Assembly (NCBI GenBank): GCA_963666365.2
Contig: CAXXNF010000002.1
Location: 1,824,001 to 1,888,000 of the forward strand
Origin: Syntrophales bacterium
GTDB taxonomy: Bacteria; Desulfobacterota; Syntrophia; Syntrophales; UBA2210
Direction: 5' to 3'
DNA length: 64,000 nt
How positions within the stretch are numbered: position 1 is the stretch's first letter; every line of letters begins with the position of its first letter. The translations under genes and the position numbers were made by a program. Of this stretch, positions 14,595 to 43,010 are shown in pieces. The notes beneath the pieces are model-generated. The model ran no database searches and had not been told where the DNA came from. It saw only the letters and a program-made list of their open reading frames with translations.

Positions 14595-14975
14595 GCAGCT
14601 ATAAACTCACTTCAGAGGGCTAGCAAGTCATTTATTCGGGTGTGTTATACAGAAACTACATAACGCACTCCCTCCCCGTACTGACGGTCACAATAATCCG
14701 AGCTGCTCGCCAAAAAACAAAAGCCCTGCTTCTCTTTTTGAAAAACAGGGCTGTTACCGGCAAGCCATATCTCCTCCTTTTTATCTCATACGAAGGACCA
14801 ATCTTTTGTGATTACATACACCTCATCGTATTGTTGTCAACTTATTTTTGCTATTTTGATGAAGTTCTTGCCTGTCCATCCAGTCAAAGGTACCTCTTTT
14901 CAAGAAAATTCAGGGTTAAAAAGGAATAACAATAGAAGGCCGCGTCAAATCAGTATAGGAGTCTGTATCTGGAAC

Positions 14976-15060
14976 ATTCCAGGGACAGTATACTTAATTT
15001 TACATCATCGGGTATTCACAAAGACTGCCTCAGTTGAATTAAGTATACTGTCCCTGGAAT
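14976..15060. mobile_element. Non-autonomous mini element (REPIN/MITE-like) with perfect 24-bp inverted repeats
   Basis: ATTCCAGGGACAGTATACTTAATT (14976-14999) and its exact complement (15037-15060), 37-bp spacer; resembles the IRs at 22249/22877. Confidence 0.8.
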
Positions 15061-15274
15061 TCAATTCAAAAAAGACCGACGCCGGTTTAAATTCGGGCGT
15101 TAGCGCCTTGATAATCTCGTCTTCTTTCCGGGTACGGTCAAGCGGAGCGAGTAGACGCACCGGTAACGCGCCATACACAATAAACGTGTCGGTTTCACAC
15201 AAAAGCGCTGCCGAGGTCCCGCTTAGCGCGATATGGCTGAAACGAGAACTGAATTGATATACTGGATTTACCAC
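15059..15274 (-). pseudogene. Truncated duplicate of the ycaO 5' end
   Basis: Near-identical to 21896-22111; cut off at the mini-element IR. Confidence 0.9.
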
Positions 15275-15291
15275 AGCAGGCAATCGGTCGG

Positions 15292-15543
15292 TTAACACCA
15301 AATTGAAGCTGCCACCCGCTCTTCCAGATTATCGAGGTTGGTCTCGCCTTCCTCCATATGCGGGATAACGAGGATCTCCTCGTTGGGGGCTTCTTCGAGA
15401 ACCCTGATTTTTACATAATCGGGAATTTCGACGTTCTCGCTCCTCAATACTGCGATTGGATCGCTGATGAGCCGTTGCTTGTACTCAGCATCGCCCCACG
15501 CTTTGGCTACAACCTTGGCCCACAGCTTGTTCATATCATTCAT
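15292..15543 (-). CDS. NHLP-leader RiPP precursor (83 aa), ending ...LEERVAA-SIWC
   Basis: VVAKAWGD..YKQRLISDP..VL...V.IP nitrile-hydratase-like leader; GGAGG RBS. Confidence 0.85.
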   Translation of the reverse strand: MNDMNKLWAKVVAKAWGDAEYKQRLISDPIAVLRSENVEIPDYVKIRVLEEAPNEEILVIPHMEEGETNLDNLEERVAASIWC

Positions 15544-15908
15544 TACTGATACCTCCACTATGGAATTTATCTGCTTGCGAAGCAATCTTCTAGCAAGTTT
15601 AATATGTTGGCTCTATATCACCTGGGATATTGCAATGCAAGATTAAACTACATACTTCAGAGTTGCAGCTCTGAGATCGTTTTTTCATCTGGAGCTATAG
15701 ATATGCCTTGACGAGGGATCAGAGATGTAGAATAAGTCAACAACTTAACATCAGAACGTTTCCGGGGTTCCCAACGTGCTTCTTTTTGGCCGCTGGTTGA
15801 CGCCTGATTTTGGGCAATGCTACAATTGCATCGGTCATGGCGGTAAGAAAGTGAATGTTTGATCCCGGTATGAGATGCGCCGAGCTGTCTTTTCCTATTA
15901 ACTGAATT

Positions 15909-18044
15909 ATGAAGGTTTCGGATATGAAGAACCGAAGAGTTATGCTTATAAACGCGTGTAATCCTCCGGTTAACCTCACCTATCCTTATTCATTTGTTCA
16001 AGTGGGCGAGGTGGCCGACCGCTTTGGAATTGTCATCCAGTCCATTGAACTCTTCGGCATTCCGGAAAATGAATGGGCGCAATTCCTGTGCTCCCGTCAG
16101 GAGGAATTTCGTCCGGATCTGATCGGAGTCACCCTCCGGAATACCGACTCCATGCTCTCCAGCGATTACATCCGGCGACCCCGGAACCGGGAGTATCTTT
16201 GCCCTTTTCAGGCCACCTTCTTAGAAGGGGCGCTGGAGGGGTTCTCTCCTTACTTTCCTGTCCACACCACCCGGCGACTGATTAAAATCCTGCGCCGAAT
16301 CACGGACCTTCCGGTCGTGGTCGGGGGCTACGGTTTCTCGGTGATGCCGGAACGTATGATGGATTTTCTTCGGCCCGACTACGGGGTGAGGGGCGGACCT
16401 GACGGCTTCTTTGAGAATTTCGAGGATATCCTCTCCCGCCAACGACTTCTGGAAGTACCCAATCTGCTCTATTGGGAGGGCGAGGAGCTTTGCGCCGGAC
16501 CGCTTCGTTTCTTCGGCCCGGCTCCACGGCGGGAATACAACGAGGAAAATATTCGAGACCGCGCCCGCTTCCTAGCTGCCCGCTATCTCCCAATTTCTCC
16601 CCTTTCCCGGTCGGTTCCGCTTGAGATCATCCGGGGCTGCCCCAACCGGTGTGCTTACTGTTCCGAACCCCTGGTCAAGGGCAGACAACTCCAGTACCGG
16701 GACCGGGAGGTGATCCGGGAAGAGATTGAGTTTCTGGGGCGGCACGGCTTGAATCTCCTCTGGTTCATCTGTTCGGAGATGAACACGGAAGGGAACCAGT
16801 TCATGCTGGAGCTGGCCGAGGATATGATCCGGATTAATGAGAAACGGGATGACGCTGAAAAGGTGAAGTGGTATGGGTACTATCTCCTTACCCTTTCCCC
16901 GGACGAGCTCGGTCTCTTGAGACGTTCGGGTTTCCTGGGGGGGTGGAACGATATCGTCTCATTAGATGATTCGAACCTCTCGCGGATGGGATTCCCGTGC
17001 CAGAGCAAGAACCAGATCGAGAACCTCTTTCAGATGACGGTTTTTGCCCGGGATGATTTAAAACGGAAGGGAAAGAAATCGATGACACCGGAAGAACGGC
17101 TTTTTTACGATCCGAACCATCGGGGCACCTTTGGGATGGATAATATCTGCAATCGCGGTTGGAGCCTCTTTCTCGGCAACCCGGAGACCACGGCCGAGAC
17201 CATCCGGATTACTCTGGAAAAGTTCGACCGGAAGGGATTAGCAGATTACTACGATGTGTGTTTTATCTCCCGGGCGACCAGGGTTTACGATTACATAGAT
17301 GGGATAGATCCGGAGCGCGACCGTCTCTGCTCTTTCACGCCCTCGGGTGCGGCGGCAACAGTTGATTATGTCAATCCTACCTTCTGTTTTCCGCATGATC
17401 TGCTCGCCCGGCTCGGTTCCCCCGAAGAGATAGAAAGCTTATTTACCTTGTTGGAGAATACCTATTTCTCCCGTCACCACCTATTTCAGAAGGATTGGAA
17501 CTGGTTTTTGAATCGAAACTCCAGCCCGGCGCGGTTCGGGAGAGCTTTCCGGGATGCTCTCTCCCGGGCTCGACCTCCCTTTCCAGGGGATCTCAGCCGG
17601 CTTGGTGAGGTGCGAAAATTTTTCGATTACCTGTCTGGAGATCCGTGCCCGGAACGGATCGGGTTGCTCTTCAATCCGACCCCCGGCCGGAAACACCTTC
17701 TTAATCTCGCCGCTTGGGGCGCCATTCGTTTTGTGCTCTCCCAGCACCGGGAAGAGTTGGCCCCGGTCCGGCAAATCTTGGCTCTGCCGGATTCTTACCC
17801 GGGTGGGGTGGAGCCCTCTGAGTTCCGGGTTGCCCGCTTGATCTATCGGCGGTTTGACTCCGAACGGCAGCTTCGAAAAGCTCTTCGTTCCGAACCCGGC
17901 CTCCGGCGGGGAAAACTTGAAGATCTTTTGCTGGAATATCTGCTCTATAGGAATAACCTGGTCTTACGGCCGGACTACCGCCCCTTTTTCCTGACCGAAG
18001 ATTCGTTCGGGGAGAGCGGGCTGGATGATGAAGAGTTAACTTAA
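15909..18044 (+). CDS. Cobalamin-binding radical SAM enzyme
   Basis: N-terminal PDLIGVTLRN...VVVGG B12-domain features; RGCPNRCAYC (CxxxCxxC). Confidence 0.8.
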   Translation: MKVSDMKNRRVMLINACNPPVNLTYPYSFVQVGEVADRFGIVIQSIELFGIPENEWAQFLCSRQEEFRPDLIGVTLRNTDSMLSSDYIRRPRNREYLCPFQATFLEGALEGFSPYFPVHTTRRLIKILRRITDLPVVVGGYGFSVMPERMMDFLRPDYGVRGGPDGFFENFEDILSRQRLLEVPNLLYWEGEELCAGPLRFFGPAPRREYNEENIRDRARFLAARYLPISPLSRSVPLEIIRGCPNRCAYCSEPLVKGRQLQYRDREVIREEIEFLGRHGLNLLWFICSEMNTEGNQFMLELAEDMIRINEKRDDAEKVKWYGYYLLTLSPDELGLLRRSGFLGGWNDIVSLDDSNLSRMGFPCQSKNQIENLFQMTVFARDDLKRKGKKSMTPEERLFYDPNHRGTFGMDNICNRGWSLFLGNPETTAETIRITLEKFDRKGLADYYDVCFISRATRVYDYIDGIDPERDRLCSFTPSGAAATVDYVNPTFCFPHDLLARLGSPEEIESLFTLLENTYFSRHHLFQKDWNWFLNRNSSPARFGRAFRDALSRARPPFPGDLSRLGEVRKFFDYLSGDPCPERIGLLFNPTPGRKHLLNLAAWGAIRFVLSQHREELAPVRQILALPDSYPGGVEPSEFRVARLIYRRFDSERQLRKALRSEPGLRRGKLEDLLLEYLLYRNNLVLRPDYRPFFLTEDSFGESGLDDEELT

Positions 18045-18200
18045 TGCCCGGTACCGCTGCAAAAAATCAGTATCTCGCACCAAAATCCACACTTGGCAGG
18101 GTTATGGTAAAATGTGCAAATACGTCCCACTATCCCATGTTTGGCTTCCGGCCCGATCATGAATCTGGGCGAGTTGTCCCTTGGTAGTCATTGGGGCCTA

Positions 18201-19910
18201 TTACAATTCAAAGTCGCGGTGCGTAACCGCATAATATTGGGAATAGACAAACCGCACCAGGACAACCAGGGCGAAGACCAGGGTGAGCGGCGCCAGCGCC
18301 TGTAGCAGTCTGTTCTCGGCCGCATGGTGCGTGATGAATTCATAGAACGGCAGCAGGAAAAAGATGACGGTGAACACGGTCCCGAGTAGGCCGTACCCCA
18401 ACAAGAACGCCCGGTTCACGCCCGCGAATTCTTCCGCCTGGGCCGGCTCGGTGGTACCGCACAACCGGAAGACCAGGTAGCGCAAGTAGCGGAAGGAGCG
18501 GGAGCGCAGGTTCTTGATCCCGGACCAATCCATGAGCACGTAATATCCGTCCAGGCGCAGGAACGGGTTGAGGTTGAAGAGCAGGGAGATATAGCAGATG
18601 CAGGCTAGGGCCAGCACGAGCGTATCGAGGCCCGGCAGTACGGACGAGATGAAAAAGCTGCACCAGAAAAGACAGCTGCCCAGGGCAAAAGTCGTAAGCG
18701 GACCGGCCAGGGAAATAATAGCCCGCTGCCGCCAGTCCTTTAAACGCCAGGAGGAAGAGACATCGCAATAGAAGATAAAGGCCGCCAGGTAGAACATTAA
18801 GCCGAGACGGTAGATGCGGCAGCCGTAATGTTTGCTGGCCACGCCGTGCCCAAACTCGTGGATGATGACGATGAAAAAGAGTCCCAGGTAGACCAGGGCA
18901 AACAAAGTCGGGTTTGAGGAAACGAGCAGCGGCAGGTGCTTGGCCTGTTCCACGATCCGCGTCTGGTCGAGCCACAGCGGCACCAGCCCGGAGAGTGCGA
19001 TCAGGAGCATCAGGAAAAAGCCGGCCGGCGTTGCCAGGAAGCCGAGGCTGTGGTACACCGCGGTGACGGCGCGGTCGGCGTGACGGATGGAAAAATCCGG
19101 GTTAAGAAACCGCAGTAGCACGCGTTTGGCGCCGGGGGTGGACCTTTGCCCTTCGGTCTCGTCCAGCATTCCTTCCGCTTCCAATTTTTTATAGAGCGCT
19201 TCCAAGCGAGAAGGATGGATGAGTCCGTGTTCGTCAACAAAGCGCAGGTAGAGCTCGCGCACGGTGACGCTGCCGTCGAAGCGGCTGGCGAACCACGCAT
19301 ACTGCCAGTCAAGCTCCAGAATCTTGCCGGTACCGGTATCTTTTAGCAGGGCTCTGCCCGGAGCGCCGCTGGCGGGCGGTTCTCCGCCGTCAACGATTAT
19401 GCGCGGCAACAGCCGCGGCGCCACGCTGAGCACCCAGAGCTGCTTTTCAGCATGGGCGGGTCGGAAGTATCGCTCCATAATAAACTTTTGCTCTTTGCTG
19501 CTTCGGAAAAGGCGGACCCGGTCCATCCAGTGCTTTACCTGATGCAGCCAGAGGGTGTCGGTGTTGATATCTTCCAGATCGATATCGCCGGTGCCCAGAG
19601 TGAATTCTCCAAGCAGTTCCGGGGCCAGGGGAAGCCCGTTGCGGTAATGTACTTCGATCCGTAGTTTTTCGGCCAGGATGGCCATCTCGATTTTGATTAC
19701 CTCGCCCGGCGCCTGCCGCAGCAGCTCGCCGTATACTTCTTCAATGGCCGCGAGCACGGCCTGGTAAAATACCGGCGACAGGTCTAAACGGTGCAGCAAT
19801 GTGCTGGCGAGGTCAAAGATCGTTGTGAAGTTGTCGGCGGTAACCTCGCCGGTATAGGTCATCCTGGTTGCGGTTGGGACCGCGCGGTTTGGTTTCACCG
19901 GCTTCGCCAA
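18201..19910 (-). CDS. M50 (site-2) membrane metalloprotease with PqqD/RRE-like domain and degenerate HATPase-like N-terminus
   Basis: HEFGH, LAGP, NLNPFLRLDGY; FDGSVTVREL...L.AEGML RRE-like segment. Confidence 0.8.
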   Translation of the reverse strand: MAKPVKPNRAVPTATRMTYTGEVTADNFTTIFDLASTLLHRLDLSPVFYQAVLAAIEEVYGELLRQAPGEVIKIEMAILAEKLRIEVHYRNGLPLAPELLGEFTLGTGDIDLEDINTDTLWLHQVKHWMDRVRLFRSSKEQKFIMERYFRPAHAEKQLWVLSVAPRLLPRIIVDGGEPPASGAPGRALLKDTGTGKILELDWQYAWFASRFDGSVTVRELYLRFVDEHGLIHPSRLEALYKKLEAEGMLDETEGQRSTPGAKRVLLRFLNPDFSIRHADRAVTAVYHSLGFLATPAGFFLMLLIALSGLVPLWLDQTRIVEQAKHLPLLVSSNPTLFALVYLGLFFIVIIHEFGHGVASKHYGCRIYRLGLMFYLAAFIFYCDVSSSWRLKDWRQRAIISLAGPLTTFALGSCLFWCSFFISSVLPGLDTLVLALACICYISLLFNLNPFLRLDGYYVLMDWSGIKNLRSRSFRYLRYLVFRLCGTTEPAQAEEFAGVNRAFLLGYGLLGTVFTVIFFLLPFYEFITHHAAENRLLQALAPLTLVFALVVLVRFVYSQYYAVTHRDFEL

Positions 19911-22111
19911 TCGTCGAGCCGTATGCCGCAGTTCGAGTAGAAGAACGGGATGCGGCTCTGCTCTGCGGCGAGCCGGGGCGCCGGCAGCCAGCCGGCCCGG
20001 ACCGGCAAGTCGAAGAGGCGGGCGGTGGCGAACCGGGGCCAGAAGCGGCAGAGGCCGGGCACAATGACTCGCGTAACCACAAGCCCGTGCCCGGGCCGAG
20101 TAAGATCGATGGCCACGACCTCTAGGCCTAGCGCGGCACCGCGGGCCACCAGCAGTTCGATATCGTCTTTTAGGTTGCCGGTTTCCTGGCGCGGGAAATC
20201 GCTCGCTGTCCGTCGGGGCGCGTTAGCGGGGGCGACAAACGGTTTGGCCCAGAGTGGTTCCGGATCGTACTGCAAGCAGAAGTCGTGGAGCCGGAAATGG
20301 GGGGTCCAGTACCAAGACTGGCCCAACTCGGTGACGGCTCGATTCAGGGCGATGCCGGGATCAAGGTCGGCACCGAAACCCATTCGCGGGATCTCGCTTG
20401 GATTCGTGCGGTGGCGCGCCACTGCGACCACCACAGGCACATTAAAATCGTGGGTCAGGTCGAGAGCGTAGAAATCCCAGCCGTGCCGATCAAGATAGGC
20501 GCCCAACGGTTGCATTTGGGGCAGGGAGAAGGAATCGAGATCGAGCGCTGGCCGGGGGATCTGGTTGCACCACCAGATTGTGGCCGCATCCCGCTCAATT
20601 ACCTCGAGAAAACCGTGCAGCAGCGCTTCCTCAAGGCACCCACCCGAGGCTAGGCCGTTGGTGGCGGCATCGGCATAGTTTGTGCCATCCTCAGGAGGAA
20701 TCGAGAAATAGACGAAGGAGCGGGGCACCAGGCGCTTGGCCCGGTGGGTCAGGGACCAAGCTGGCGTCCAGGTTAGCTTCATGTCCGGTGCAAAATTGCC
20801 GGGGCCGAAGACGGGATCGGGCGGGCGGGTCGCGGCCCACTCCAGGTAGTCTGTTTCGTCGCAGCCGTAGATGCGGTGCGGCGGAACGGCTTCCCCGGCA
20901 ACTTCCGCATAACACGCCTGCACTACCGGTTCGTCGCCGCGATAGTAAGCCGAGGTCCGTTCGATCGCCTCGGCCACTGCGCTCAAACGCCCCTGCAGCT
21001 TCGTGAAGCCCTTGCCGTTACCGCCTGTGGGAACGAGGGCGCGCTTACGGTCGAAAAACCCAGCGTCGATAGGTACCGAAAAATGCGCGAGATGCGGGTA
21101 ACCGAATTCCGGCGGTACGCCGGCGAGCGGCGCCACGCGCTGCACAATCCCGGTGTGCGGGCTGATAAGCGGTTCGAGACTCGCCATGGCCTCCGCCGAG
21201 TCCCGGATGCGCAGACCGTTCTCCCGTGAGAGCTGACGGGGACGGGAGGTCAGGGTGAGCGGGGGCCCACTGTCGGGCCGGGCCCGGCGGGGGGCGCAGG
21301 TTTGGCATTGGCTGTCGTTGTCGACGCGATGGCAGCGTAGCGCTGCAGTGGCCAGATCGACGGTTACCAGGTGACCGCTAAATGCCGCGGCGGCCGGGCC
21401 GGTACCGGTTTTGCCTATTTCCGCCGCGAGCAGTTTGAACGTCGCACTGAGCGAGGCCTCCGAGCGTTCGCGGGAAAGGCGGAGCGGCTGGCCCGAAGTG
21501 CTATGGTCCAAGTGCCAGGCTTCAAGGCTGTGATTGCGTCTCAGCCGGGATATCAGACAGCCAAAGCAAGGATCGCCGTCGTGGCCGAAGCGCGGTCCGA
21601 ACCAGGGAACGCGGCCGACCGCCTTTACCGGGAGCCAAGACTGGCCGTGACTCCGGCTTGTGGCAAATTCGGCCAACTGCGGATCAAGGTAGTCGTCAAT
21701 GATGACTATTCTGAGCGGCAAGGGAACTAGGGCGGCCAAGTAGTGTTGCAAAAGCGGGCCAGCGCTGGGTTCCGTTCCTAAATCCACGATTTCCGAGAAC
21801 GCGTTTTTCCGGCTGGGCATTGCGTTGGCCGCGGTTAGCGGCCGCTTCGCGGCCGCGCTGCCGCCGGTCTCGAGGAAACCACCGTCGTGTAGCCGATTCA
21901 ATTCAAAAAAGACCGACGCCAGTTTGAATTCGGGCGTTAGCGCCTCGATAATCTCGTCTTCTTTCCGGGGACGGTCAAGCAGAGCGAGTAAACGCACCGG
22001 TAACGCGCCATACACAATAAACGTGTCGGTTTCACACAAAAGTGCTGCCGAGGTCCCGCTTAGCACGATATGGCTGAAACGAGGACTGAATTGATATACT
22101 GGATTTACCAC
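19895..22111 (-). CDS. TOMM fused cyclodehydratase (RRE/E1-like + YcaO)
   Basis: GP...PCFGC, CQTC; EAIER, TNGLASG...EEA...EVIERD ATP-binding motifs; RIPFF near the C-terminus. Confidence 0.9.
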   Translation of the reverse strand: MVNPVYQFSPRFSHIVLSGTSAALLCETDTFIVYGALPVRLLALLDRPRKEDEIIEALTPEFKLASVFFELNRLHDGGFLETGGSAAAKRPLTAANAMPSRKNAFSEIVDLGTEPSAGPLLQHYLAALVPLPLRIVIIDDYLDPQLAEFATSRSHGQSWLPVKAVGRVPWFGPRFGHDGDPCFGCLISRLRRNHSLEAWHLDHSTSGQPLRLSRERSEASLSATFKLLAAEIGKTGTGPAAAAFSGHLVTVDLATAALRCHRVDNDSQCQTCAPRRARPDSGPPLTLTSRPRQLSRENGLRIRDSAEAMASLEPLISPHTGIVQRVAPLAGVPPEFGYPHLAHFSVPIDAGFFDRKRALVPTGGNGKGFTKLQGRLSAVAEAIERTSAYYRGDEPVVQACYAEVAGEAVPPHRIYGCDETDYLEWAATRPPDPVFGPGNFAPDMKLTWTPAWSLTHRAKRLVPRSFVYFSIPPEDGTNYADAATNGLASGGCLEEALLHGFLEVIERDAATIWWCNQIPRPALDLDSFSLPQMQPLGAYLDRHGWDFYALDLTHDFNVPVVVAVARHRTNPSEIPRMGFGADLDPGIALNRAVTELGQSWYWTPHFRLHDFCLQYDPEPLWAKPFVAPANAPRRTASDFPRQETGNLKDDIELLVARGAALGLEVVAIDLTRPGHGLVVTRVIVPGLCRFWPRFATARLFDLPVRAGWLPAPRLAAEQSRIPFFYSNCGIRLDDWRSR

Positions 22112-22248
22112 AGCTTATTCATATCATTCACTACTGATACCTCCACTATGGAATTTATCTGCTTGCGAAGCAATCTTCTAACAAGTTTAATGTGTTAGCT
22201 CTATATCACCCAGGATATTGCAATTCAAGATTAAACTACATACTTCAG

Positions 22249-22900
22249 GGAATTCCGGGGACACCTTACTTATCTCTTTTTTTAGATCCAGGGCTTTGAT
22301 GCTTAAGTCTTCGGCCCAAAAGGTGTTCCATTGTCCCAATAAAAGAATCAGTTCCTAAGGGCCGACCGGTTCATTCGTGTTTTCTAAATAACGCTATTTC
22401 CTGATCCTGAGCATCAAAGGACAAGAAGTCTTCCCAAGGCTCATTTACTATTTCCAGCAATGGCTTTGTTTTTACAAGGATATCATCTTTGCCTTTCATA
22501 TGTGGACTGGCACTACTCCATTGCCAGTCGCCAGGCTTTTTTTTCACCAAGCCTGCCCGAACAGGATTTACTTCCACATATCTAGTACATGCTAAGAGAT
22601 ACCCCTCATCCATGATAAAAGATGAAAACCTTCCCTGCCATAAGTGCCCACGCCATCCTTCACGAAAATTGATCCATCCTGTGTATCTTCTGTGCGCTTC
22701 ACCAATTGCCTGATTCAAACCTTCCTTTGTTTCAGGTACAACAATCAATCGTTGAAAAATGTGTGCTTCTGCCTGTTTTCTTAGTGTGTTACATGATGCG
22801 GGATTCCCGGCGCTATTGCTCTTGCTATTCGTGCCATGTTTAGAATCAATCAAACTGGCTGGCTTTTGTCAATAATTAAGTAAGGTGTCCCCGGAACTCC
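22249..22900 (-). mobile_element. RAYT-type (Y1 HUH transposase) element with 24-bp terminal inverted repeats
   Basis: GGAATTCCGGGGACACCTTACTTA (22249-22272) and TAAGTAAGGTGTCCCCGGAACTCC (22877-22900), one mismatch. Confidence 0.8.
22280..22837 (-). pseudogene. REP-associated tyrosine transposase pseudogene
   Basis: MARIAR...PHHVTH*; HUH segment deleted; GHLWQGRF, YVEVNPVRAG, W.WSS retained; premature stop at HE*TGRPLG. Confidence 0.8.
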
Positions 22901-22927
22901 CAAATAAACATATCTATTTCACTTTCA

Positions 22928-23940: not shown

Positions 23941-24711
23941 TTAACCATGGTCCATTTTTTCCTCCCCTTGCTCAGTGTTTTTCCGAAGTCTGTAACTGTT
24001 GCCCCGGATATTTATTATAATGCTGTGATGGAGCAGGCGATCCAGAAACGCCGTGACGATGACCGGATCGTGAAACAGCTCGGTCCAGTCGGAAAAGGCC
24101 TTGTTGGACGTGATCACAGTGCTGGCCTTCTCATAGCGGTTGGCAATGAATCTGAAAAAAAGGTTGCATTCCTCTCTGTCGATTGGTGTATAGCCGACCT
24201 CGTCAACGATCACCAGTGCCGATTTGTAATAGCTTCTTCCTCTGCCTTTGCGTCCTGCCTCGTGATCTTTTTTCAGTTTCCCGATTAGATCCTCCATCGT
24301 CGTAAAGTAAATGCTCATGCCCGCCTGACAGGCCTTCAATGCGAGAGAGACGGCCAGGTGGGTCTTGCCCACGCCCGGAGGCCCCAAAAAGATGACATTC
24401 CCTTTCTCACGGATAAAGGTCAGATCGAAAAGCGACATGACTTTCTGACGATCCAGCTTGGGTTGAAAGGTAAAGTCGAATTCATCAATGCTCTTGATAA
24501 AGGGGAGCCCCGATATCTTCAGCGCCGTTTCCACCCGTCGCTGTTCCTTGCAGGCGATTTCCTCTTCCAGCAGTTCGTCGAGAAAGGAAAGATAGCTTGC
24601 GCTTTTTTCCTCGGCCGTTTTGGTCGCCTGTACAAGTATGGCGCCCATTCGGGAGAGCCGAAGCCGCGTGAGACTGGACTGTATGCGATCGACAAGCAAT
24701 GTCTCGTTCAT
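23941..24711 (-). CDS. istB: IS21 helper ATPase IstB
   Basis: GPPGVGKTHLA, VDEVGY, TSN, DRLLHH, GNSYR. Confidence 0.95.
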   Translation of the reverse strand: MNETLLVDRIQSSLTRLRLSRMGAILVQATKTAEEKSASYLSFLDELLEEEIACKEQRRVETALKISGLPFIKSIDEFDFTFQPKLDRQKVMSLFDLTFIREKGNVIFLGPPGVGKTHLAVSLALKACQAGMSIYFTTMEDLIGKLKKDHEAGRKGRGRSYYKSALVIVDEVGYTPIDREECNLFFRFIANRYEKASTVITSNKAFSDWTELFHDPVIVTAFLDRLLHHSIIINIRGNSYRLRKNTEQGEEKMDHG

Positions 24712-25967
24712 AGGCCCATCTCCCCGACGAGCGAGTCATACAGCGCTGTGGGACGGATTTCAACGTCCATGGTGGCATAGGACGACTTCAAGGGACTGAT
24801 GGTGCATTTGGCGCGTCCCTTACCGTGTCTGCCCCGGCCATATTTGCGCTTGTTCATCTCCCGGTCTTTTCTGAGCGCCTCGTAGAAGCGGGGATCTTGG
24901 ACCAAGTTCCCCTTGCCTTCCGGAATGTCGTACGTCGCCAACAGGCAATCGTCGTGGAATATCCGCATGCATCTGTCCTTGACCCGTAAAATCAGATGCT
25001 TCCCCACCACGGTATGGGGCACTACATAACTGTTGCCTTCGAAACGGACCAGGCAGTCCTTGCTGACCTTGCGGTACACGCGGTACGACGTATCGAAAGG
25101 GCGGGAAGGCAACGCCTGTAAATGAGGAAGTTCGCGGGCGAAACGGCACGCTACGACTTCATGGGTGGTGCCGTGCACACGCTCGTCTTTCATTGCAATC
25201 CATTGCTGAAGATCTCGATTGGCCGTTGTGAGACACACATATCCGTACCCCCTCCAGAACCCTTCACGGATGAAATGGTAGGGCCGCTCGACTTTTCCCT
25301 TCACCCAGGCGGCATAGGCGGGGGCAACCGCCGGTTTGAACCCATTATGCAGCGCAAAGGCCATCAGCGTGTCGTTGAATCGATCTTTGCCGGCCAGTTT
25401 CCCGATGAACACGTTTCTCATGCGATCGTAAAGTATCTCCGCCGGGATGCCCCCGAAATGTTCGAAGGCGCGAATATGACAATCGAGAAAGGTGGGCAGG
25501 TCGCATCGCTCAATGAATTCGCCATACAGTTTTCTGGAGTATCCCAGAATCATTGAAAACAGATAGAGCTTCTTGACGCTCCCGTCGGCATTGGCAACCT
25601 GGAATTCACCAAAATCCACCTGCGCCTGAAAGCCCGGCTCCGTCTCAAACCGCATATAGGCCACGCGCTGTTGTTCCGCTTTGAGCTGATGCACCTGCCT
25701 TTTCACGATTTCATAACTTCCGGTAAATCCCATTGCACGGAGCCGATCATAGAGCAGGGTGGCCCTGTACTCGCCGTCTTCCTCCAACCATGCCGCAATA
25801 TTGTCCCTATAGGGATCTACGAGACTCTTGCGCTTCGCCTTCTCTCTCGTAACTCCCTGATCCCCTTGATTCTCTATATACTTCTTCACCGTGTTCCTGC
25901 TGATCCCCAGCTTCCGTGAAATGTGCCTCTGGCTCAGTCCTCTTCTCTGTAATAACAATATGTCCAA
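24708..25967 (-). CDS. istA: IS21 transposase IstA
   Basis: N-terminal HTH, RFETEPG.QAQVDF, KGKVER. Confidence 0.95.
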   Translation of the reverse strand: MDILLLQRRGLSQRHISRKLGISRNTVKKYIENQGDQGVTREKAKRKSLVDPYRDNIAAWLEEDGEYRATLLYDRLRAMGFTGSYEIVKRQVHQLKAEQQRVAYMRFETEPGFQAQVDFGEFQVANADGSVKKLYLFSMILGYSRKLYGEFIERCDLPTFLDCHIRAFEHFGGIPAEILYDRMRNVFIGKLAGKDRFNDTLMAFALHNGFKPAVAPAYAAWVKGKVERPYHFIREGFWRGYGYVCLTTANRDLQQWIAMKDERVHGTTHEVVACRFARELPHLQALPSRPFDTSYRVYRKVSKDCLVRFEGNSYVVPHTVVGKHLILRVKDRCMRIFHDDCLLATYDIPEGKGNLVQDPRFYEALRKDREMNKRKYGRGRHGKGRAKCTISPLKSSYATMDVEIRPTALYDSLVGEMGL

Positions 25968-26678: not shown

Positions 26679-26739
26679 GTCCAACGCCCGGCATCAACGG
26701 CCCGAGGTACGAGGGTCCGCTTGGATGCCGATGTTAGGA
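26679..26739 (-). repeat. attC site
   Basis: GTCCAAC; CGGCATC.A.CGG/CCGCTTGGATGCCG stem; GTTAGGA. Confidence 0.9.
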
Positions 26740-27393
26740 TTTACTTTCCCCTTCAACTGAAAATGCACCTTGTGCGTCTGAGAATCGCGTACATAAATCA
26801 TCGATACGTGAGGTAAAATCCATCGTTCCAGTAGTTTTACGATCAGTCCAGTATTTTGCAGTAAGTGTTTCTGGTTTCAGACTCGGCCCGTGAGTCTCAA
26901 TGATGATGGCACCTTGGTGCATCTCACTAATTCTTTCGTCTCGGAGGTGAACATTGGGCTCATTAGTATAAACCCCGATAATTTGGAAACCGTTACCATT
27001 GGGTGACGGTCTTACATGGTCCGCGATAAACCATGACTCAGATTCAGGGGTCATTAGATGCATTTGAAGCTTAGAAAGCGTCTGCTTGACGCCCATATAG
27101 CAAACAATCATTGGGACACGTTCATTGGTTTCGGGGCTTACATAACTTGATTGGAGTTCGACACGCCATGTTCCCCTAAGATCGGGCCGCTTGACGAACC
27201 AACCGTGAAGAAATGAGTGACGCCATAAGACAAATTCAAAGAGTAATCCGAGCCCGACTAAGCAGCTGACAACAACACTGAAGGGGCGGGCATGAGACCA
27301 AGATATAGGTGTGCCCTGACATAACAGCACAATCAGCCAAATGATCACGGCAATGGCAAGGAAAGCTGTAATATGGAGTCGATCAAGTTTCAT
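26734..27393 (-). CDS. cap15: CBASS 2TM beta-barrel effector, Cap15-like
   Basis: Two N-terminal TM helices, PDLRGTW, KQT, YTNEP, HQG, YWTDRKTTG; ATGA overlap with the CD-NTase stop. Confidence 0.8.
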   Translation of the reverse strand: MKLDRLHITAFLAIAVIIWLIVLLCQGTPISWSHARPFSVVVSCLVGLGLLFEFVLWRHSFLHGWFVKRPDLRGTWRVELQSSYVSPETNERVPMIVCYMGVKQTLSKLQMHLMTPESESWFIADHVRPSPNGNGFQIIGVYTNEPNVHLRDERISEMHQGAIIIETHGPSLKPETLTAKYWTDRKTTGTMDFTSRIDDLCTRFSDAQGAFSVEGESKS

Positions 27394-28316
27394 ATTGGCT
27401 TTACTCCAACATAATCCCACGCCGCATTAATAAAAGCGTGTGCTTGTTCTCGTGTCCATGGTTGCACTACATGGAAGAGGTATTTGATGTCATCAACTTC
27501 ACACCATTTATCGCAATTTGTCACTTCGTTAGTATTCTGCCATAGATATCTTAGCACTGACTGGACGCGGTCTACCCAAGTATACTTATCAAAACACCAA
27601 TTTGGTGCATTCCATACAAGACATTCAAGAAGATAACCAGGAACGGCTTTTGCCTGATCGTTGCCTAAGTCCTCCAATTCAATACGCAATTTCTTCAAGA
27701 TGCGAACCATTCCTTTAAAGCGTTGACTTGTGGAGCTGTTTTTTGAGACACCATTTTCGTAGTGCAACGGAGTAGATGGCCAGTAATCTACTAGACGCTC
27801 AGGATAATTCTCGATTCTGCGTATGCTATTGTCGGGGTAAAGAGCAACTCCTGCACGATAACTACCATTGTCCCAATAATGTCGAAATTCGAAAAGTGGC
27901 ACAACATCAGCTTCAACTCGTGTCTGAGTTGCTTTGATATCAAAGGCCTTGTTACCTCGTTTTACTGCAGCGATGCCAAAGTAATCGACGAGGGCTCCCT
28001 CTAACTCATTTTTGAACTGTGAGAAAGAGTAGCCAGCATCACTGTTTCCAAAATCGGCATGCTTTTTCCCTTCTGGATACTGTGAGAGGAAGTAATCGTA
28101 GAGCATCACACCAACGTCTACGTCGCTGTCTTGACGAACATTAACACGGTTGCGAAACGATCCTTGTGTGAAGACTTGTATTTTTCTATGTTGAAGTTTC
28201 GGGCTTTGACTAACTGCGGCTTTAATAGCTCGAATGACTCGCTCACAGCGTTCCTGCTCAGTCTTACTGGGCGACTGTGCCCAAAAGGTAAAAGTACTCT
28301 CCCAATCACGACTCAA
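27390..28316 (-). CDS. CBASS CD-NTase (cGAS/DncV-like nucleotidyltransferase, CdnE-like)
   Basis: QGSFRNRVNVRQDSDVD, EADVVP, NYPE..H..NG..KN, YLLECLVWN. Confidence 0.9.
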   Translation of the reverse strand: MSRDWESTFTFWAQSPSKTEQERCERVIRAIKAAVSQSPKLQHRKIQVFTQGSFRNRVNVRQDSDVDVGVMLYDYFLSQYPEGKKHADFGNSDAGYSFSQFKNELEGALVDYFGIAAVKRGNKAFDIKATQTRVEADVVPLFEFRHYWDNGSYRAGVALYPDNSIRRIENYPERLVDYWPSTPLHYENGVSKNSSTSQRFKGMVRILKKLRIELEDLGNDQAKAVPGYLLECLVWNAPNWCFDKYTWVDRVQSVLRYLWQNTNEVTNCDKWCEVDDIKYLFHVVQPWTREQAHAFINAAWDYVGVKPI

Positions 28317-29112: not shown

Positions 29113-30012
29113 TTACTCGATGGACGCTCCTTTACCGAAATTACATTCATTGCAGAGCGTTCGTAGATTATCAATTACCGTCTTTCCGCCTTTTGACCAA
29201 GGAACGATATGATCAACATGTAGCTCAAGGTTTGCTGTATTGGCCGGGCTTCGACCGCATTTTTCACATTTGTAGTTTGATCTCTTTAAAATTTTCCATC
29301 GACGCCCAAGAGGTATATCTCTTCTCTCTGGAACTGGTACTGATTGTTTCCTCTGCTTCGGACCATTAATGGTCGGAGGCGGAGCGGGCTGGTCGGAGTT
29401 TGCATATTCCACAAATGCCTCAAGAGCTTTATTCCACGTACCCCACTTTACAATATATGCTTTTCCACCAACTTTAGACGGCGGTGCTGACATTTCTCGA
29501 TAATATGGCTCCCTACCAAGGGTAGACCACATTAACAAAATATTCTCGTAACACTCTTCTTCTGTATATCGTCGCCCATGTGTTTTTGCTTGGAGTCCTG
29601 CACGCTTTAATGCCGCATTCCATGAGCCGAATCTTCTGCGAACTGTATCTGGACTTATAGTTGAGTGATCTCTGAACTCATTAACTGTTAACGTTTCCTT
29701 TCCAAGCGTTCGCGCAACTTCTATAACTTGTAAAAGCACCTCATCATCCATTGCTTTTGCGCCCTGGCGTTGAGTTTTTTCAGATAATGTTGGCGTATTG
29801 TATAAATGAGGGAATCCGGAAATCGTTAGTGCGTTTTTCCAACTTACGAAGCGTCTACGAACAGTGGTAAGACCTACTTTAGAATGTTTTTGGAACTCTG
29901 CGGTAGAAAGGGTACCGCTTGATACAAGCCTACAAACTCTTTTAATTTCTGCAATTAAATTATCATCCGAATAATCAGAAAGACGTTTTAGTTTAAACGA
30001 AAATTTTTTCAT
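29113..30012 (-). CDS. HNH endonuclease with N-terminal homing-endonuclease-associated repeats
   Basis: Three RRF.SW..AL-like repeats; CEKCG...LHVDHIVPWSKGG...NLRTLCNECN; start inside the cassette boundary GCTCTAAC (30036). Confidence 0.85.
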   Translation of the reverse strand: MKKFSFKLKRLSDYSDDNLIAEIKRVCRLVSSGTLSTAEFQKHSKVGLTTVRRRFVSWKNALTISGFPHLYNTPTLSEKTQRQGAKAMDDEVLLQVIEVARTLGKETLTVNEFRDHSTISPDTVRRRFGSWNAALKRAGLQAKTHGRRYTEEECYENILLMWSTLGREPYYREMSAPPSKVGGKAYIVKWGTWNKALEAFVEYANSDQPAPPPTINGPKQRKQSVPVPERRDIPLGRRWKILKRSNYKCEKCGRSPANTANLELHVDHIVPWSKGGKTVIDNLRTLCNECNFGKGASIE

Positions 30013-30035
30013 AATTGTGCTGTAAAAATTTTTGT

Positions 30036-30163
30036 GCTCTAACGGGGCCGCGGCTGAGCTGCGGTCCGAAGAAAATTGTAATTTTCTGAGGACCGGCAGA
30101 TCAAGCCGCGTGTTCGTCCGCCGCAGGCGGCGGCACGTGGCGACAGTCGCGGCCCCGTTCATC
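30036..30163 (-). repeat. Long attC site containing a sigma70-like promoter (copy D, intact)
   Basis: AACGGGGCCGCGGCTG/CAGTCGCGGCCCCGTT arms; TTGATC (30104-30099) N18 TACAAT (30080-30075). Confidence 0.8.
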
Positions 30164-31680: not shown

Positions 31681-32865
31681 CTATGGAGGCCACCTACCGG
31701 TTTGTGACAGAAGAACCTCCTTCCGCACCATGATTCCCTTGCCGCAATGGGGGCATATCCGAAGATCAACGCCGGTCACCCGGAGGAATGTCTCTTCCCA
31801 GGGTTCTTTGGGGGAATCATTTTTCTCTGCCTGTTCCGGTATGCCGAGGAGCTTTTTGCACTGAGCAAGCTTTCTCTTTCGGTTTCGGTTGCTCAGCAGT
31901 CCGTAATAGCGGATCTTCATGAACTGATCGGGGAGAATGTGCAGGAGAAAGCGACGGATGAACTCGAAGGCGTCGAGGGTCATGAGCTTGGTTGCGCCTT
32001 CCTTTGACGGATCGCGCACTCGGAAGGTAACATCGTGAGTGCCTATCCTAATAATTCTGTCGTTCGAGATGGCCACACGGTGGGTGTAGCGACCGAGATA
32101 CTCGATGACATGTTTTACGCTTCTGAAAGGTTCCTTGCAGTAGACAACCCACTCTTTGCGATAAAGATCGGCAACGAACTGTCGAAAGATCGCCCGTTCC
32201 TTTAGGGCCTCGATCTTGCCGGGGAATCTCAGATCGGCTGCTTCGTAGGCTTTTTTGAGATAGTGAAGAAACTTACCCCGAAAGAGCCGGGAAAGAACCT
32301 TGACCGGCAGGAAGTAGTCCTCCTTCGCCGGAATCCATCGCTCCCCGTCAAGGGAAAGTCCGCCGCCTGTCACGATGCAGTGAACATGGGGATGATCGAT
32401 CAGGCTCTGCGACCAGGTGTGCAGGATGGCAATGCAGCCGATCTCAGCACCCAGATGACGATGATCGCGGGAAAGATCCATGATGGTCTCGGAGGCGGCC
32501 TTGAAAAGTATGTGGTAGAGGGTCTTCTGGTTCCGCAGGGCCAGCGGTCGAAGTTCCTGGGGAATCGTGAAAACGATATGCACGTAGGAAATGGGCAGCA
32601 AGTCCTTTTTTCTTGCCTCCAGCCACAGCTCTCGCTTCAGTCCCTGGCATTTGGGGCAGTGGCGATTCCGGCAGGAGTTGTAGGAGATCCGAACGGCACC
32701 GCAATGGTCGCATTCATCCACATGTCCGCCAAGCGCGGCGGTCCGGCATAGTTCAATGGCTCGCATCGCCCGGTGGTGTCGTCCGGCCATTCTGCCGCCA
32801 TGGATATCTCGATAGGCCTCCCCAAATTCACGGAAGACCTGGGCCACTTCCGTGGTTCCACGCAT
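31681..32865 (-). CDS. IS91-family (Y2 HUH) transposase with Zn-binding N-terminus
   Basis: CRTAALGG, NSCRNRHCPKC, HPHVH, YLGRY, IRYYG. Confidence 0.95.
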   Translation of the reverse strand: MRGTTEVAQVFREFGEAYRDIHGGRMAGRHHRAMRAIELCRTAALGGHVDECDHCGAVRISYNSCRNRHCPKCQGLKRELWLEARKKDLLPISYVHIVFTIPQELRPLALRNQKTLYHILFKAASETIMDLSRDHRHLGAEIGCIAILHTWSQSLIDHPHVHCIVTGGGLSLDGERWIPAKEDYFLPVKVLSRLFRGKFLHYLKKAYEAADLRFPGKIEALKERAIFRQFVADLYRKEWVVYCKEPFRSVKHVIEYLGRYTHRVAISNDRIIRIGTHDVTFRVRDPSKEGATKLMTLDAFEFIRRFLLHILPDQFMKIRYYGLLSNRNRKRKLAQCKKLLGIPEQAEKNDSPKEPWEETFLRVTGVDLRICPHCGKGIMVRKEVLLSQTGRWPP

Positions 32866-32879
32866 GAAACGGCGACCCG

Positions 32880-33734
32880 CTAAAGAACGCTGTCCCGCGA
32901 GGCGGCGATCACGTCGAGGGGATTGGCGATCCGTTCAAAGTCCTTTCGAGAGAGGTGGAGGTAAACGGCCGTAGTCTTGGGGCTGGCGTGCCCCAGAAGC
33001 CGCTGTATGTGGTACAGGTCCGCCCCGTTCTCCAAGAGATGGGTGGCAAAGCTGTGGCGCAGGGTATGGACGCTCCCCGCTTTCCTAACGCCCGCTCTGA
33101 GCAGCGCATCTTTAAAGGCTTTCTGGACGCTTGACACTGAAAGAGGCGACCACTTGTCTTTGCCGAAGAAGAGCCAGTTCACGGGATGGCACTGCGACCA
33201 GTAAAACCGCAGTTCTTCCAGGGTCCGTTTGGCCAGCAGGGTGTAGCGGTCTTTGTTGCCCTTCCCCTGGCGTATGCGAATCACCATGCGCTCGCTGTCG
33301 ATGTCAGACACTCTCAGGTGCACGGCTTCATTGAGCCGCAATCCTCCCGAGTAGATCGTCATGAGAATGGCCCGATGCTTCAGATTGCCGACGACCGAAA
33401 GAACGGCCCGCACCTCCTCCGGCGAAAAAACCGCAGGTAGGCTCTTTTGTTTCTTCGCACGAGGTATCCGGTAGGAGATCCAGTCGCGCTTCAATGTCGT
33501 CTCATAGAAAAACTTCAGGGCGCTGTAAGTCTGACTCACCGTTGACTGAGAAGCCTTCTTCTCTTCGATGAGATAGTGAAGATAGGTCTTGATCTCTTCT
33601 TCTCCCAACGTCTCCGGCGACGCCCCAAAGTGACGCACAAATCTGCGCATGTGCTCCAGATAGCATTCCCGCGTCCTCCGGCTGAGGTGGCGCAGCTCCA
33701 TATCGCGTTTCATCTGATCGCGCAGTCTTCCCAT
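32880..33734 (-). CDS. Tyrosine recombinase (XerD/IntI-related, without the integron-specific insertion)
   Basis: GLRLNE, GKGNKDR, HTLRHSFATHLLE, LGH, TTAVY. Confidence 0.9.
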   Translation of the reverse strand: MGRLRDQMKRDMELRHLSRRTRECYLEHMRRFVRHFGASPETLGEEEIKTYLHYLIEEKKASQSTVSQTYSALKFFYETTLKRDWISYRIPRAKKQKSLPAVFSPEEVRAVLSVVGNLKHRAILMTIYSGGLRLNEAVHLRVSDIDSERMVIRIRQGKGNKDRYTLLAKRTLEELRFYWSQCHPVNWLFFGKDKWSPLSVSSVQKAFKDALLRAGVRKAGSVHTLRHSFATHLLENGADLYHIQRLLGHASPKTTAVYLHLSRKDFERIANPLDVIAASRDSVL

Positions 33735-33868
33735 ATCTTTTCTCCTTTCTTGCATGAATGATGAATCATCCTTACAAAAAGAAGAACGATCAGGACAGCA
33801 ACAATGTACGCTATTCAATTGTCAAAGAACGACCATTTTTACTTAAAATACCGCCGCGTAGCGGCTTA

Positions 33869-36401: not shown

Positions 36402-37373
36402 ATGCGCAAGAAAGGTATCTACATGGACTCTCAATCGATCGCCCTTGTCTTTCCCGGGCAGGGATCGCAAAAAACCGGGATGGGCAGGGATTTCTACGAC
36501 GAAAGCGGTATCGGGAAAGCCACCTATCAGGAGGCATCGGAGGCGCTCGGTTTTGATGTGGCGGCACTTTGTTTTGAAGAAGATGAACGCCTCAACCTGA
36601 CCGAATATGCCCAGCCCTGCATCCTTGCAACGGAAATCGCCATGTTCAGGGTCATAGACAATCTGTATGGTCTGCGCCCGGCGCGTTTCGGGGGCCACAG
36701 CCTCGGCGAATACACTGCACTGGTGACGGCAGGCGTTCTGCCCTTCCCGGGCGCTCTGAGAGTCGTGCGGGAACGCGGCCGTCTCATGCAGCAGGCAACC
36801 CCTGTCGGCATGGGGGGCATGGCGGCGTTAATTGCAGACAATCTCGATAAGGAAGAACTTGCGGCAATTCTCAGTGATCTTCCCGTGGATATCGCAAACC
36901 TCAACTCGGCACGGCAGGTGGTCATAAGCGGCGAAACGAAGGGCCTTGCAGAGGCGGAAACTCGCCTCACTGATATACTGGGCGCCAGGGGGGCCTTCCG
37001 CTATGTGCCCCTCACGGTAAGCGCCCCATTTCACAGCCGCTTCATGGAAACGATAAAAGAGCCCTTCCGGACGGTATTGAAGGACATTGAATCGACCATT
37101 CATCCCGAAGGTGCGTCTTCCGTCACCTCGAACTTCAGCGGCGGTTTTCACGAAAACAGCAGCGAAAAAATTATCGACCGGCTCGTTTCGCAGCTTTCCG
37201 GCACCGTCCGGTGGACCGACAACATGCATGCACTGGCCGCCGGAAACGCATCGATTATCGAAATGGGACCGGGCCGCCCCCTGAGGGATTTTTTTAAAAG
37301 CATCGACGTCTCCTGCACATCGGTCACCACTTTTACCGCAGCACGCAGGACTTTTGAAAAGAGTACCACTTAA
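36402..37373 (+). CDS. fabD: Malonyl-CoA:ACP transacylase
   Basis: FPGQGSQ, GHSLGE, SAPFHS; start may be 36423. Confidence 0.9.
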   Translation: MRKKGIYMDSQSIALVFPGQGSQKTGMGRDFYDESGIGKATYQEASEALGFDVAALCFEEDERLNLTEYAQPCILATEIAMFRVIDNLYGLRPARFGGHSLGEYTALVTAGVLPFPGALRVVRERGRLMQQATPVGMGGMAALIADNLDKEELAAILSDLPVDIANLNSARQVVISGETKGLAEAETRLTDILGARGAFRYVPLTVSAPFHSRFMETIKEPFRTVLKDIESTIHPEGASSVTSNFSGGFHENSSEKIIDRLVSQLSGTVRWTDNMHALAAGNASIIEMGPGRPLRDFFKSIDVSCTSVTTFTAARRTFEKSTT

Positions 37374-37403
37374 TACAATCTGAGTTTTAAGGAAGGAATC
37401 ATA

Positions 37404-38603: not shown

Positions 38604-38605
38604 CC

Positions 38606-39589: not shown

Positions 39590-39592
39590 GAC

Positions 39593-40201: not shown

Positions 40202-40202
40202 C

Positions 40203-42697: not shown

Positions 42698-42748
42698 CAT
42701 CCCGGGATCACAGTAACACTATTAAAAAATAACACTCACGTAAGGAGA

Positions 42749-43003: not shown

Positions 43004-43010
43004 ACGGGCC

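Follow-up and report, generated by a model that had tools for sequence, protein, structure and literature searches.

NHLP (nitrile hydratase leader peptide) precursors are defined by a Gly-Gly cleavage site and by C39 exporters in the text of Haft, Basu and Mitchell (2010, PMC2887384) on which we draw, and the relevant part of a survey of thiazole/oxazole-modified microcins (TOMMs) notes no dedicated protease for NHLP clusters (PMC4603692). The section of a protease review that treats peptides that are synthesized ribosomally and modified post-translationally (RiPPs) gives M50 enzymes for epipeptides and pearlins only; these membrane proteases (EpeP for the epipeptide, TglG and TmoG for the pearlins) are described there as releasing very small C-terminal products of a carrier, or as cleaving and possibly exporting the RiPP (PMC10885120). 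For daptides, the preprint passages that we cite describe a leader-removing enzyme, MpaP/DapP, which consists of an intramembrane site-2-type protease with a RiPP recognition element (RRE) fused to its N-terminus (bioRxiv 10.1101/2023.03.08.531785). The PalX/PalQ system of Paenibacillus alvei, according to the cited part of its report, starts from an NHLP-type precursor with an 8-residue core, DNVRRFFW, and yields a small Trp-containing peptide, with prenylation of the C-terminal Trp, a cut at T72/D73 and a neighbor, PalP, described as a histidine kinase (PMC10853753). Here, we analyze a 64,000-nucleotide stretch of the genome of a Syntrophales bacterium (contig CAXXNF010000002.1, positions 1,824,001 to 1,888,000 of the forward strand; hereafter “the window”, with positions counted from its first letter), which carries an NHLP precursor with a putative core of four residues, SIWC, together with genes for a fused E1-like/YcaO cyclodehydratase, an M50 protease and a B12-binding/radical S-adenosylmethionine (SAM) protein. 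Comparison with related loci indicates that it belongs to a group of clusters in which an Ala-Ala site, probably cut by the M50 protease, takes the place of Gly-Gly.

The precursor gene (15292-15543, minus strand) is read from an ATG at 15543, with GGAGG 7 nucleotides upstream, and encodes 83 residues. Its C-terminus is NLDNLEERVAASIWC (the 83-residue protein ends in ...ETNLDNLEERVAASIWC), followed by the stop codon TAA at 15292-15294; residues 1-79 make up the leader, which ends LEERVAA, and SIWC is the putative core. The leader_NHLP model TIGR03793 gives 60.3 bits against a cut-off of 50.9, NHase_alpha gives 47.4 bits, and the protein matches 8tb1, the nuclear magnetic resonance structure of the MprE7 leader, with an E-value of 1.2e-12. 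The model score and the start site bear out a first-pass annotation of this DNA, made from the sequence alone, which had described an 83-residue NHLP-leader peptide ending VAA-SIWC and had placed all four genes where we find them. The sole Cys of the precursor is its last residue, 83, and the metal-binding Cys cluster of nitrile hydratase is absent. A search of the genome finds this one NHLP gene only, and a word-based search with the precursor returned no match besides itself.

With the NHLP azol(in)e peptides, as the passages we rely on present them (PMC2887384; MprC/MprE, PMC12455567), the locus shares a leader of about 80 residues, a fused E1/YcaO enzyme and a variable tail. It departs from them in the ERVAA end of the leader, where no Gly-Gly motif is found, in the absence of a C39 ABC exporter and of a dehydrogenase, in the presence of the M50 protease, and in a core of 4 residues versus approximately 20-30. 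PalX, as portrayed in PMC10853753, is a precedent for very short tails on NHLP leaders, although YcaO chemistry does not form part of that account; it was not found among the precursor relatives that we retrieved.

The evidence that the Ala-Ala ending belongs with the protease comes from related loci. Two full-length homologues of the M50 protein, at 35-37% identity, were aligned with it, and this alignment was used to collect 19 loci from species-representative genomes: Desulfarculus and other Desulfobacterota metagenome-assembled genomes (MAGs), Parabacteroides (including P. distasonis strain An897), Rikenellaceae, Acidobacteriota and Victivallis. The window protease is 27-34% identical, over its whole length, to the proteins of 16 of these loci. 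An NHLP gene lies in the available flanks of 16 of the 19, and a YcaO gene, fused or split, in 7. As a control, we took 80 metagenome loci in which the match of the M50 protein to the query is confined to residues 165-566; matches to NHLP, YcaO or radical SAM were found in none of them (0/80). Without exception, the 30 complete precursors beside the related proteases carry R/K-x-small-small (leader ends ERLAA, ERIAA, DRMAA, KKAA, ERVQA and similar) and then a variable tail of 5-19 residues, and the window's LEERVAA aligns with the conserved (E/D)ER-[LIVM]-A-A motif of the relatives. An exhaustive phmmer search with the precursor returned 1842 proteins at E ≤ 0.001. NHLP leaders are known with Gly-Gly and C39, whereas 28 of the 48 single-domain proteins among the best 150 of these matches end in ER-x-Ala-Ala or a similar AA-type motif (a regular expression gave 30, from which two false matches were removed by eye). 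Their tails range from 2 to 44 residues, and in eight the tail has at most 6 (TLWT, LKCG, WLFK, WSIFYQ, GPSATI, FFGAPS, IC and IMI).

From the occurrence of the motif in 16 of 19 loci with related M50 proteins, against no NHLP gene in 80 controls, we infer that the AA site is cleaved by the M50 protease instead of the GG site by C39, and we regard this as sound. On the same alignments, the replacement of GG by AA, which the first-pass annotation had proposed for the single VAA that it saw, characterizes the family and goes with this protease, and very short tails are a recurrent feature of the family. A preference for aromatic residues at the ends of AA-type cores was checked on the 28 relatives and dropped. 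Literature searches, which did not cover supplements, found no paper linking NHLP precursors with an M50 protease or with an Ala-Ala site, and the cluster group, which is widespread in anaerobic bacteria, is apparently undescribed. If the assignment is correct, it would show a new way in which structured leaders are removed by a peptidase, help to mine for short-peptide products missed by length filters, and offer a tractable example in a gut commensal.

The window locus is the least tidy member of this NHLP(ER-x-AA)/M50 group. The P. distasonis An897 locus (L022, 388-8085) is a tidy, culturable representative, in which seven tandem NHLP precursors ending KKAA or KNAA, with Cys-rich cores, are accompanied by a ThcOx-type dehydrogenase gene lying among them, a fused YcaO and an M50 protease. 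One delta-proteobacterial MAG holds two paralogous clusters (L014 and L015) with precursors ending ERMQP or ERVQA, split E1/YcaO, a three-part M50 protease and B12 radical SAM genes in both; in L014, a truncated precursor and a transposase are present as well. In three further loci (L023, L024 and L017), the available flanks contain a precursor and M50 pair only (the L023 precursor has the tail LWGLF), with no modifying enzyme, and the neighbors are hybrid sensor kinases, a sigma-54 activator or an SbmA/BacA-like transporter. Many of the best phmmer matches, P0062, P0063, P0065, P0069 and P0076 among them, contain 2-4 NHLP domains in tandem; in some, a GG site with a core forms the end, and P0076 is a near-perfect internal duplication.

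The protease gene (18201-19910, minus strand) encodes a 569-residue membrane protein with GHKL-like (anti-sigma-like), PqqD/RRE-like and M50 domains, the zinc-protease motif HEFGH at residues 351-355 and NPF...LDG. Peptidase_M50 scores 42.7 bits, and the daptide RRE-peptidase model NF041824 matches residues 187-551 with an E-value of 7.6e-51, although its 173.4 bits do not reach the cut-off of 300; the LiaK/YydH model matches weakly (33 bits against a cut-off of 225). When a profile of 17 family members was compared with the protein P0058 by hhalign, the probability was 99.2%, and residues ~187-250 of the window protease fell on a domain of P0058 that by itself scores above the Pfam cut-off for PqqD. 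Searched alone at E ≤ 1, 6 of the 17 members match PqqD and 13 match HATPase_c_2. An AlphaFold model (pLDDT 75.9) has a strand-strand-helix-helix-helix unit at residues 186-245, and Foldseek places the N-terminal 150 residues on SpoIIAB/RsbW anti-sigma factors (TM score 0.7-0.88 on the target) and the membrane C-terminal part on SpoIVFB. HExxH and NPF...LDG (P449-F450...D454) are invariant across the family. The presence of an RRE in the protease is supported by the profile and model comparisons, in keeping with the RRE-M50 protease that had been annotated at first pass. The GHKL-like domain had been overlooked there; it is likely to be a docking surface for the folded NHLP leader.

The resemblance to MpaP/DapP lies in the fusion of an RRE with a site-2-type membrane protease and in the NF041824 match, and the differences are the lower score and the additional GHKL-like domain of about 150 residues. 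The precursor differs as well, being of the NHLP type with a core that ends in Cys, rather than having the ELExMEAP leader and C-terminal Thr given for daptides in the cited preprint passages. None of the island genes or of the 50 window open reading frames (ORFs) scanned belongs to the Dmp-forming decarboxylase/aminotransferase/methyltransferase set of daptides. Unlike the pearlin and epipeptide clusters in the cited part of the review, the locus has no PEARL and no epimerase enzyme; the likeness to them lies in a membrane M50 protease that would release a very small C-terminal product.

The cyclodehydratase gene (19895-22111, minus strand; 738 residues) passes the cut-offs of TIGR03882 (88 bits versus 36.9) and TIGR03604 (221.5 versus 219.25) and matches LynD (4v1t) at 323 bits over residues 3-722, which agrees with its earlier annotation as a fused E1/YcaO enzyme. 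All residues invariant in 15 YcaO homologues are retained. No relative above 35% identity was seen among the proteins scored, and a related-loci search with the YcaO protein alone gave no relative. The best solved relatives are the cyanobactin enzymes LynD, TruD and MusD (4v1t, 4bs9 and 7u58; 308-323 bits), with LynD aligning over nearly its whole length, including the N-terminal leader-binding part. Unlike in cyanobactins, there are here no PatA/PatG proteases, no macrocyclization signals and no core-flanking recognition sequences. Nitroreductase/ThcOx, C39 and ABC genes are absent from the 50 window ORFs scanned. Searches of the whole genome (4.0 Mb in 2 contigs, 94% complete) gave, for azoline dehydrogenase, one 19-bit match to TIGR03605 elsewhere, against a cut-off of 78.4, and for the C39 peptidase (PF03412) no match, whereas control genomes did match. 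The lack of a flavin dehydrogenase and of a C39 gene that had been remarked for the window extends, therefore, to what is detectable in this 94%-complete genome.

We favor, with a probability of about one half, a pathway in which the YcaO enzyme makes a thiazoline at the C-terminal Cys, without oxidation, and the M50 protease cuts after Ala79 to release a tetrapeptide. The E1/YcaO enzyme would bind the structured NHLP leader and cyclodehydrate Cys83 onto the Trp82 carbonyl, giving a thiazoline-4-carboxylate, and the ring would remain an azoline because the genome has no azoline dehydrogenase. The protease would then dock the leader on its cytoplasmic domains and cut after Ala79 in its membrane-embedded active site, and the Ser-Ile-Trp-thiazoline tetrapeptide would be released and perhaps exported. 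It is from sequence that we infer the cut site, the thiazoline, export and the continued activity of the cluster. The candidate ring-forming residues of the core are Ser80 and Cys83, and cyclization of Ser80 is unlikely because its ring would involve the scissile bond. A bolder version of the pathway, which we consider distinctly improbable, makes the NHLP domain a folded carrier for a four-residue Trp-thiazoline-carboxylate, perhaps C-methylated by the orphan B12 radical SAM enzyme, that is cut and exported by the M50 protease, with the anti-sigma-like domain as the docking site of the carrier; the wider group, including human-gut Parabacteroides, would then be a new class of systems for ultrashort peptides, modified or not, acting as signals or metal binders rather than bacteriocins.

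Several observations weigh against the thiazoline tetrapeptide. None of the 30 complete cores beside related M50 proteases (5-19 residues) is as short as this one, and among the 23 cores of YcaO-bearing loci (7-19 residues) SIWC is an outlier. Reading through the TAA would give SIWC-x-PTDCLLW, a 12-residue tail with two Cys that ends where YcaO starts. A ThcOx-type dehydrogenase occurs in 5 of the 7 YcaO-bearing relatives (L019, L022, L025, L028 and L030) and not in this genome, and its lack here looks like a loss or a minority state. The window protease, searched alone, matches neither PqqD nor HATPase_c_2 at E ≤ 1. The locus is also rearranged, by a partial duplication, a 249-nucleotide deletion and a REP (repetitive extragenic palindromic) truncation; as a result, the precursor now stands apart from its enzymes, and the 2.6 kb that separate it from the protease contain the radical SAM gene. 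Finally, sequence variants in related strains, described below, tend to replace residues.

Much of this would follow if the locus were a decaying relic, in which a longer original core, for example the 12-residue read-through, had been cut by a nonsense mutation, the dehydrogenase lost and the operon broken up by REP-associated rearrangement, so that the product is no longer made. We grade this as a serious rival, possible though doubtful. In its favor, the frame beyond the stop is open for 7 codons, contains a second Cys and ends at a TAA that overlaps the GTG of YcaO; however, by our own arithmetic, chance alone would leave 7 codons open beyond a stop in about 70% of cases. The short core need not be a truncation, because tails of 4-6 residues occur in 6 of the 28 AA-type database relatives (and of 2-3 residues in 2 more). 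The claim of an ultrashort core made at first pass thus holds in part: such tails exist in the family, but none of the 30 complete cores next to related M50 proteases is as short as four residues. A C-terminal Cys is likewise known in relatives (IDWCCHC in L030, ...MCCC in P0094). Also against decay, the catalytic motifs of the YcaO, M50 and radical SAM proteins are intact, and exactly one intact copy of every gene remains, each with its own copy of the upstream region.

The rearrangement, which the first reading of the sequence had missed along with both direct repeats, can be described in some detail. Repeat D1 (15059-15277 and 21896-22114; 219 nucleotides, 96% identical) covers the first 73 YcaO codons, and repeat D2 (15520-15660 and 22108-22248; 141 nucleotides, 94% identical) covers the upstream region, the ribosome-binding site and the first 8 precursor codons. 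Copy A, in minus-strand order, consists of an upstream region (15520-15660, minus strand; 5' region, GGAGG and the first 8 precursor codons), the intact precursor, a 73-codon YcaO stump (15059-15277, minus strand) and a REP-like palindrome that ends the YcaO fragment (14976-15060, unstranded; arms 14976-14999 and 15037-15060, 24 nucleotides, 100% complementary). Promoter, precursor and the first 73 YcaO codons (15059-15660) are, in other words, a diverged partial copy ending at the palindrome. Copy B, in the same order, has a RayT-like element (REP-associated tyrosine transposase), an upstream region with an 8-codon precursor remnant (22105-22248, minus strand, repeat D2), the full YcaO gene and M50. 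The remnant itself (22105-22131) reads GTG AAT GAT ATG AAT AAG CTG TGG TAA (V-N-D-M-N-K-L-W-stop), and its stop overlaps the YcaO start. The RayT-like element (22248-22901, minus strand) abuts copy B and has inverted arms (22248-22272 and 22877-22901) that are 96% complementary; NF047646 gives 35 bits, under its cut-off of 80. As side observations, the REP arm ATTCCGGGGACAGTATACTTAATT has about 50 genome-wide matches at ≤ 4 mismatches, often in inverted pairs, with related arms flanking the RayT-like gene, and a short palindrome, TGCTTCGCAAGCA, stands just before the ribosome-binding site in both upstream copies (15551-15575 and 22139-22163, minus strand), possibly serving as an operator or RNA hairpin.

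The stump is a pseudogene remnant, with 89% amino acid identity to YcaO residues 1-73 in a tblastn-type comparison. It differs from the full gene at 9 nucleotides, 3 synonymous and 6 non-synonymous, a ratio that would be expected of a pseudogene; 3 of the 9 differences occur in related strains in the stump's state. In copy B, the body of the precursor is gone, through a 249-nucleotide in-frame deletion between 7-nucleotide GCTGTGG repeats. The D1 and D2 spacings are 6837 and 6588 nucleotides, and since their difference equals these 249 nucleotides, the simplest history would be that a unit of about 6.8 kb (radical SAM, M50, YcaO and precursor) was duplicated in tandem, that one copy suffered the 249-nucleotide deletion, and that most of the other was lost in a REP-associated event, leaving one intact copy per gene. 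Copy-and-paste of a 600-bp piece is an alternative origin of the repeats. Under the duplication model, the ancestral order would be precursor-YcaO-M50 with the radical SAM gene convergent downstream, and the present head-to-head placement of precursor and radical SAM genes would be a junction artifact. The precursor and the YcaO-M50 pair each retain their own copy of the upstream region. The locus illustrates that a RiPP operon can be reordered by REP-associated duplication and by deletion at microhomology without the loss of any gene's last copy.

Sequencing runs, compared as contigs, contain the same arrangement. In run X1, possibly the source sample, contigs over 15176-15573 and 15544-22021 show no differences. 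In run X3, from another study and under a different organism label, a 2023-nucleotide contig over 20879-22350 bridges the deletion junction (22108). Run X5, from marine sediment at ~97-98% identity, bridges the same junction (21923-22238) and also contains pieces of the radical SAM, M50 and YcaO genes, and run X4 bridges the junction of REP palindrome and stump at 15059/15060 (contig 14972-15205). Because the junctions recur in X3, X4 and X5, which come from other studies, the rearranged form is a stable trait of a lineage, and an assembly artifact is excluded; this persistence, in contigs from three other studies, again speaks against a relic in decay. No contig in X3, X4 or X5 runs across the precursor stop codon. 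The variants themselves favor the relic: those in X5 are mostly replacing (8 codons changed versus 3 silent), none of the 5 changes in YcaO codons 10-158 is silent, and one run has an in-frame 24-nucleotide gap in YcaO. At a depth of only 2-5, the replacement bias is no more than a hint of relaxed constraint.

The radical SAM gene (15909-18044, plus strand) could add to the tetrapeptide pathway rather than compete with it. It encodes 711 residues with a CxxxCxxC motif and a C-terminal part of about 300 residues without an assigned domain. Radical_SAM (25 bits) and B12-binding (24.2 bits) both stay under their Pfam gathering scores; 15 NCBIfam families, mostly B12/radical-SAM, match down to an E-value of 3e-27, none near its cut-off (the best has 95 bits versus 360). 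These sub-threshold matches, with the motif, uphold the earlier identification of a cobalamin-domain radical SAM gene at this place. Pfam scans (E ≤ 10) of the C-terminal 314 and the N-terminal 120 residues gave nothing meaningful and no RRE. An AlphaFold model had a mean pLDDT of 48 and was unusable. The gene shares the composition of the island, with a guanine-cytosine content at third codon positions (GC3) of 0.64 versus 0.37-0.46 for most flanking genes.

A genuine tailoring role, for instance as a C-methylase acting on Ile, Trp or the thiazoline, is compatible with the thiazoline pathway, and we hold it to be a tentative possibility, somewhat unlikely on balance; a methylated azoline tetrapeptide, as suggested in the first-pass annotation, would then be the product. 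Methylases of the class B radical SAM type are at work in the proteusins, which have NHLP leaders, and in bottromycin, whose short core also receives a C-terminal Cys heterocycle from a YcaO enzyme. The follower peptide of bottromycin and the long proteusin cores, with their epimerases, represent a different precursor logic; of the proteusin traits, the window has the NHLP leader and one B12 radical SAM gene, but a 4-residue core and no epimerase gene in the island. The gene sits within the same high-GC block as the others, between the two repeat copies, and its pieces co-occur with the M50 and YcaO genes in X3 and X5. Its best solved match is the tryptophan C2-methyltransferase TsrM, though the alignment covers just 46 residues, all in the B12 domain. 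In the two paralogous clusters of one MAG, other B12 radical SAM genes lie beside NHLP precursors: that in L014 is 25% identical over residues 10-342 (phmmer E-value 4e-11), while the two in L015 are barely alignable and do not reach a phmmer E-value of 1e-3.

Against such a role, 17 of the 19 related loci have no radical SAM relative in their flanks, and 5 genomes with related clusters hold generic matches only, with no close relative. A phylum sample of 300 genomes yields 2 matches at E ≤ 1e-20, both confined to the core domain, and a sample of 400 genomes, apparently of the same phylum and adding little beyond the first, yields none at E ≤ 1e-25. In the C-terminal 314 residues, neither an RRE nor any other known domain was found, and under the tandem-duplication model the head-to-head position next to the precursor is a by-product of the junction. 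Of the co-occurrence that the first-pass annotation had suggested examining among precursor homologues, the AA motif with M50 (16/19) and, less often, YcaO (7/19) is borne out, and the radical SAM protein as a partner is not: it appears to stand outside the conserved system and to be, at best, a lineage-specific tailoring enzyme.

That the NHLP protein is instead a substrate or partner of a regulated-proteolysis signaling switch, and no natural-product precursor, has in its favor the likeness of the protease to SpoIIAB/RsbW and SpoIVFB and the sensor kinases or sigma-54 activators beside L023 and L024, but it is very improbable given the hypervariable tails behind a conserved leader, the up to 7 tandem precursors per locus (L022), the Cys-rich cores with YcaO and azoline dehydrogenase in 5 loci, a classic RiPP pattern, and a GHKL-like domain whose N-box and G-box nucleotide-binding motifs are, as read from alignments, neither evident nor conserved in the consensus.

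The island differs from its surroundings in guanine-cytosine (GC) content, which is 0.55 for the radical SAM, 0.59 for the M50 and 0.63 for the YcaO gene, compared with 0.52 for the genome and 0.42-0.49 for neighboring genes. In 40 relatives, including a 97%-complete genome of the same genus, a search for a close YcaO returned only distant YcaO-domain matches of ≤ 33% identity. No DNA of the same-genus genome matches the left flank (7.4-14.9 kb), in contrast to 36.4-42.7 kb, where a match at 71% DNA identity exists. The part from 22 to 34 kb is full of mobile genes. The GC shift, the absence of a close YcaO, the unmatched left flank and the mobile genes together point to foreign DNA in a variable region, and on these comparisons we regard the RiPP island as horizontally acquired. 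An Rfam scan of 10-35 kb found no family, and no tRNA gene lies near the island, the sole one being at 61.3 kb.

The mobile genes comprise an IS21 pair (IstA/IstB), an HNH endonuclease with homing-endonuclease repeats, an IS91-type Y2 transposase and a phage-type integrase (23941-25967, 29113-30162 and 31681-33818). Between them lie a protein with a Cap15 cyclic-dinucleotide receptor domain (26734-27420, E-value 4.5e-13) and an adjoining unassigned 308-residue ORF (27390-28316), a pair that may be a remnant of a CBASS-type defence inside the mobile region. Farther to the right, 36402-46174 holds a fatty-acid/polyketide-like set, conserved in the same-genus genome at the 71% DNA identity given above, with genes for an acyltransferase, an acyl-CoA dehydrogenase, KAS III, two FabA-like proteins and a ketoreductase, followed by a ketosynthase, an acyltransferase, a carboxyltransferase and a phosphopantetheinyl transferase (PPTase).

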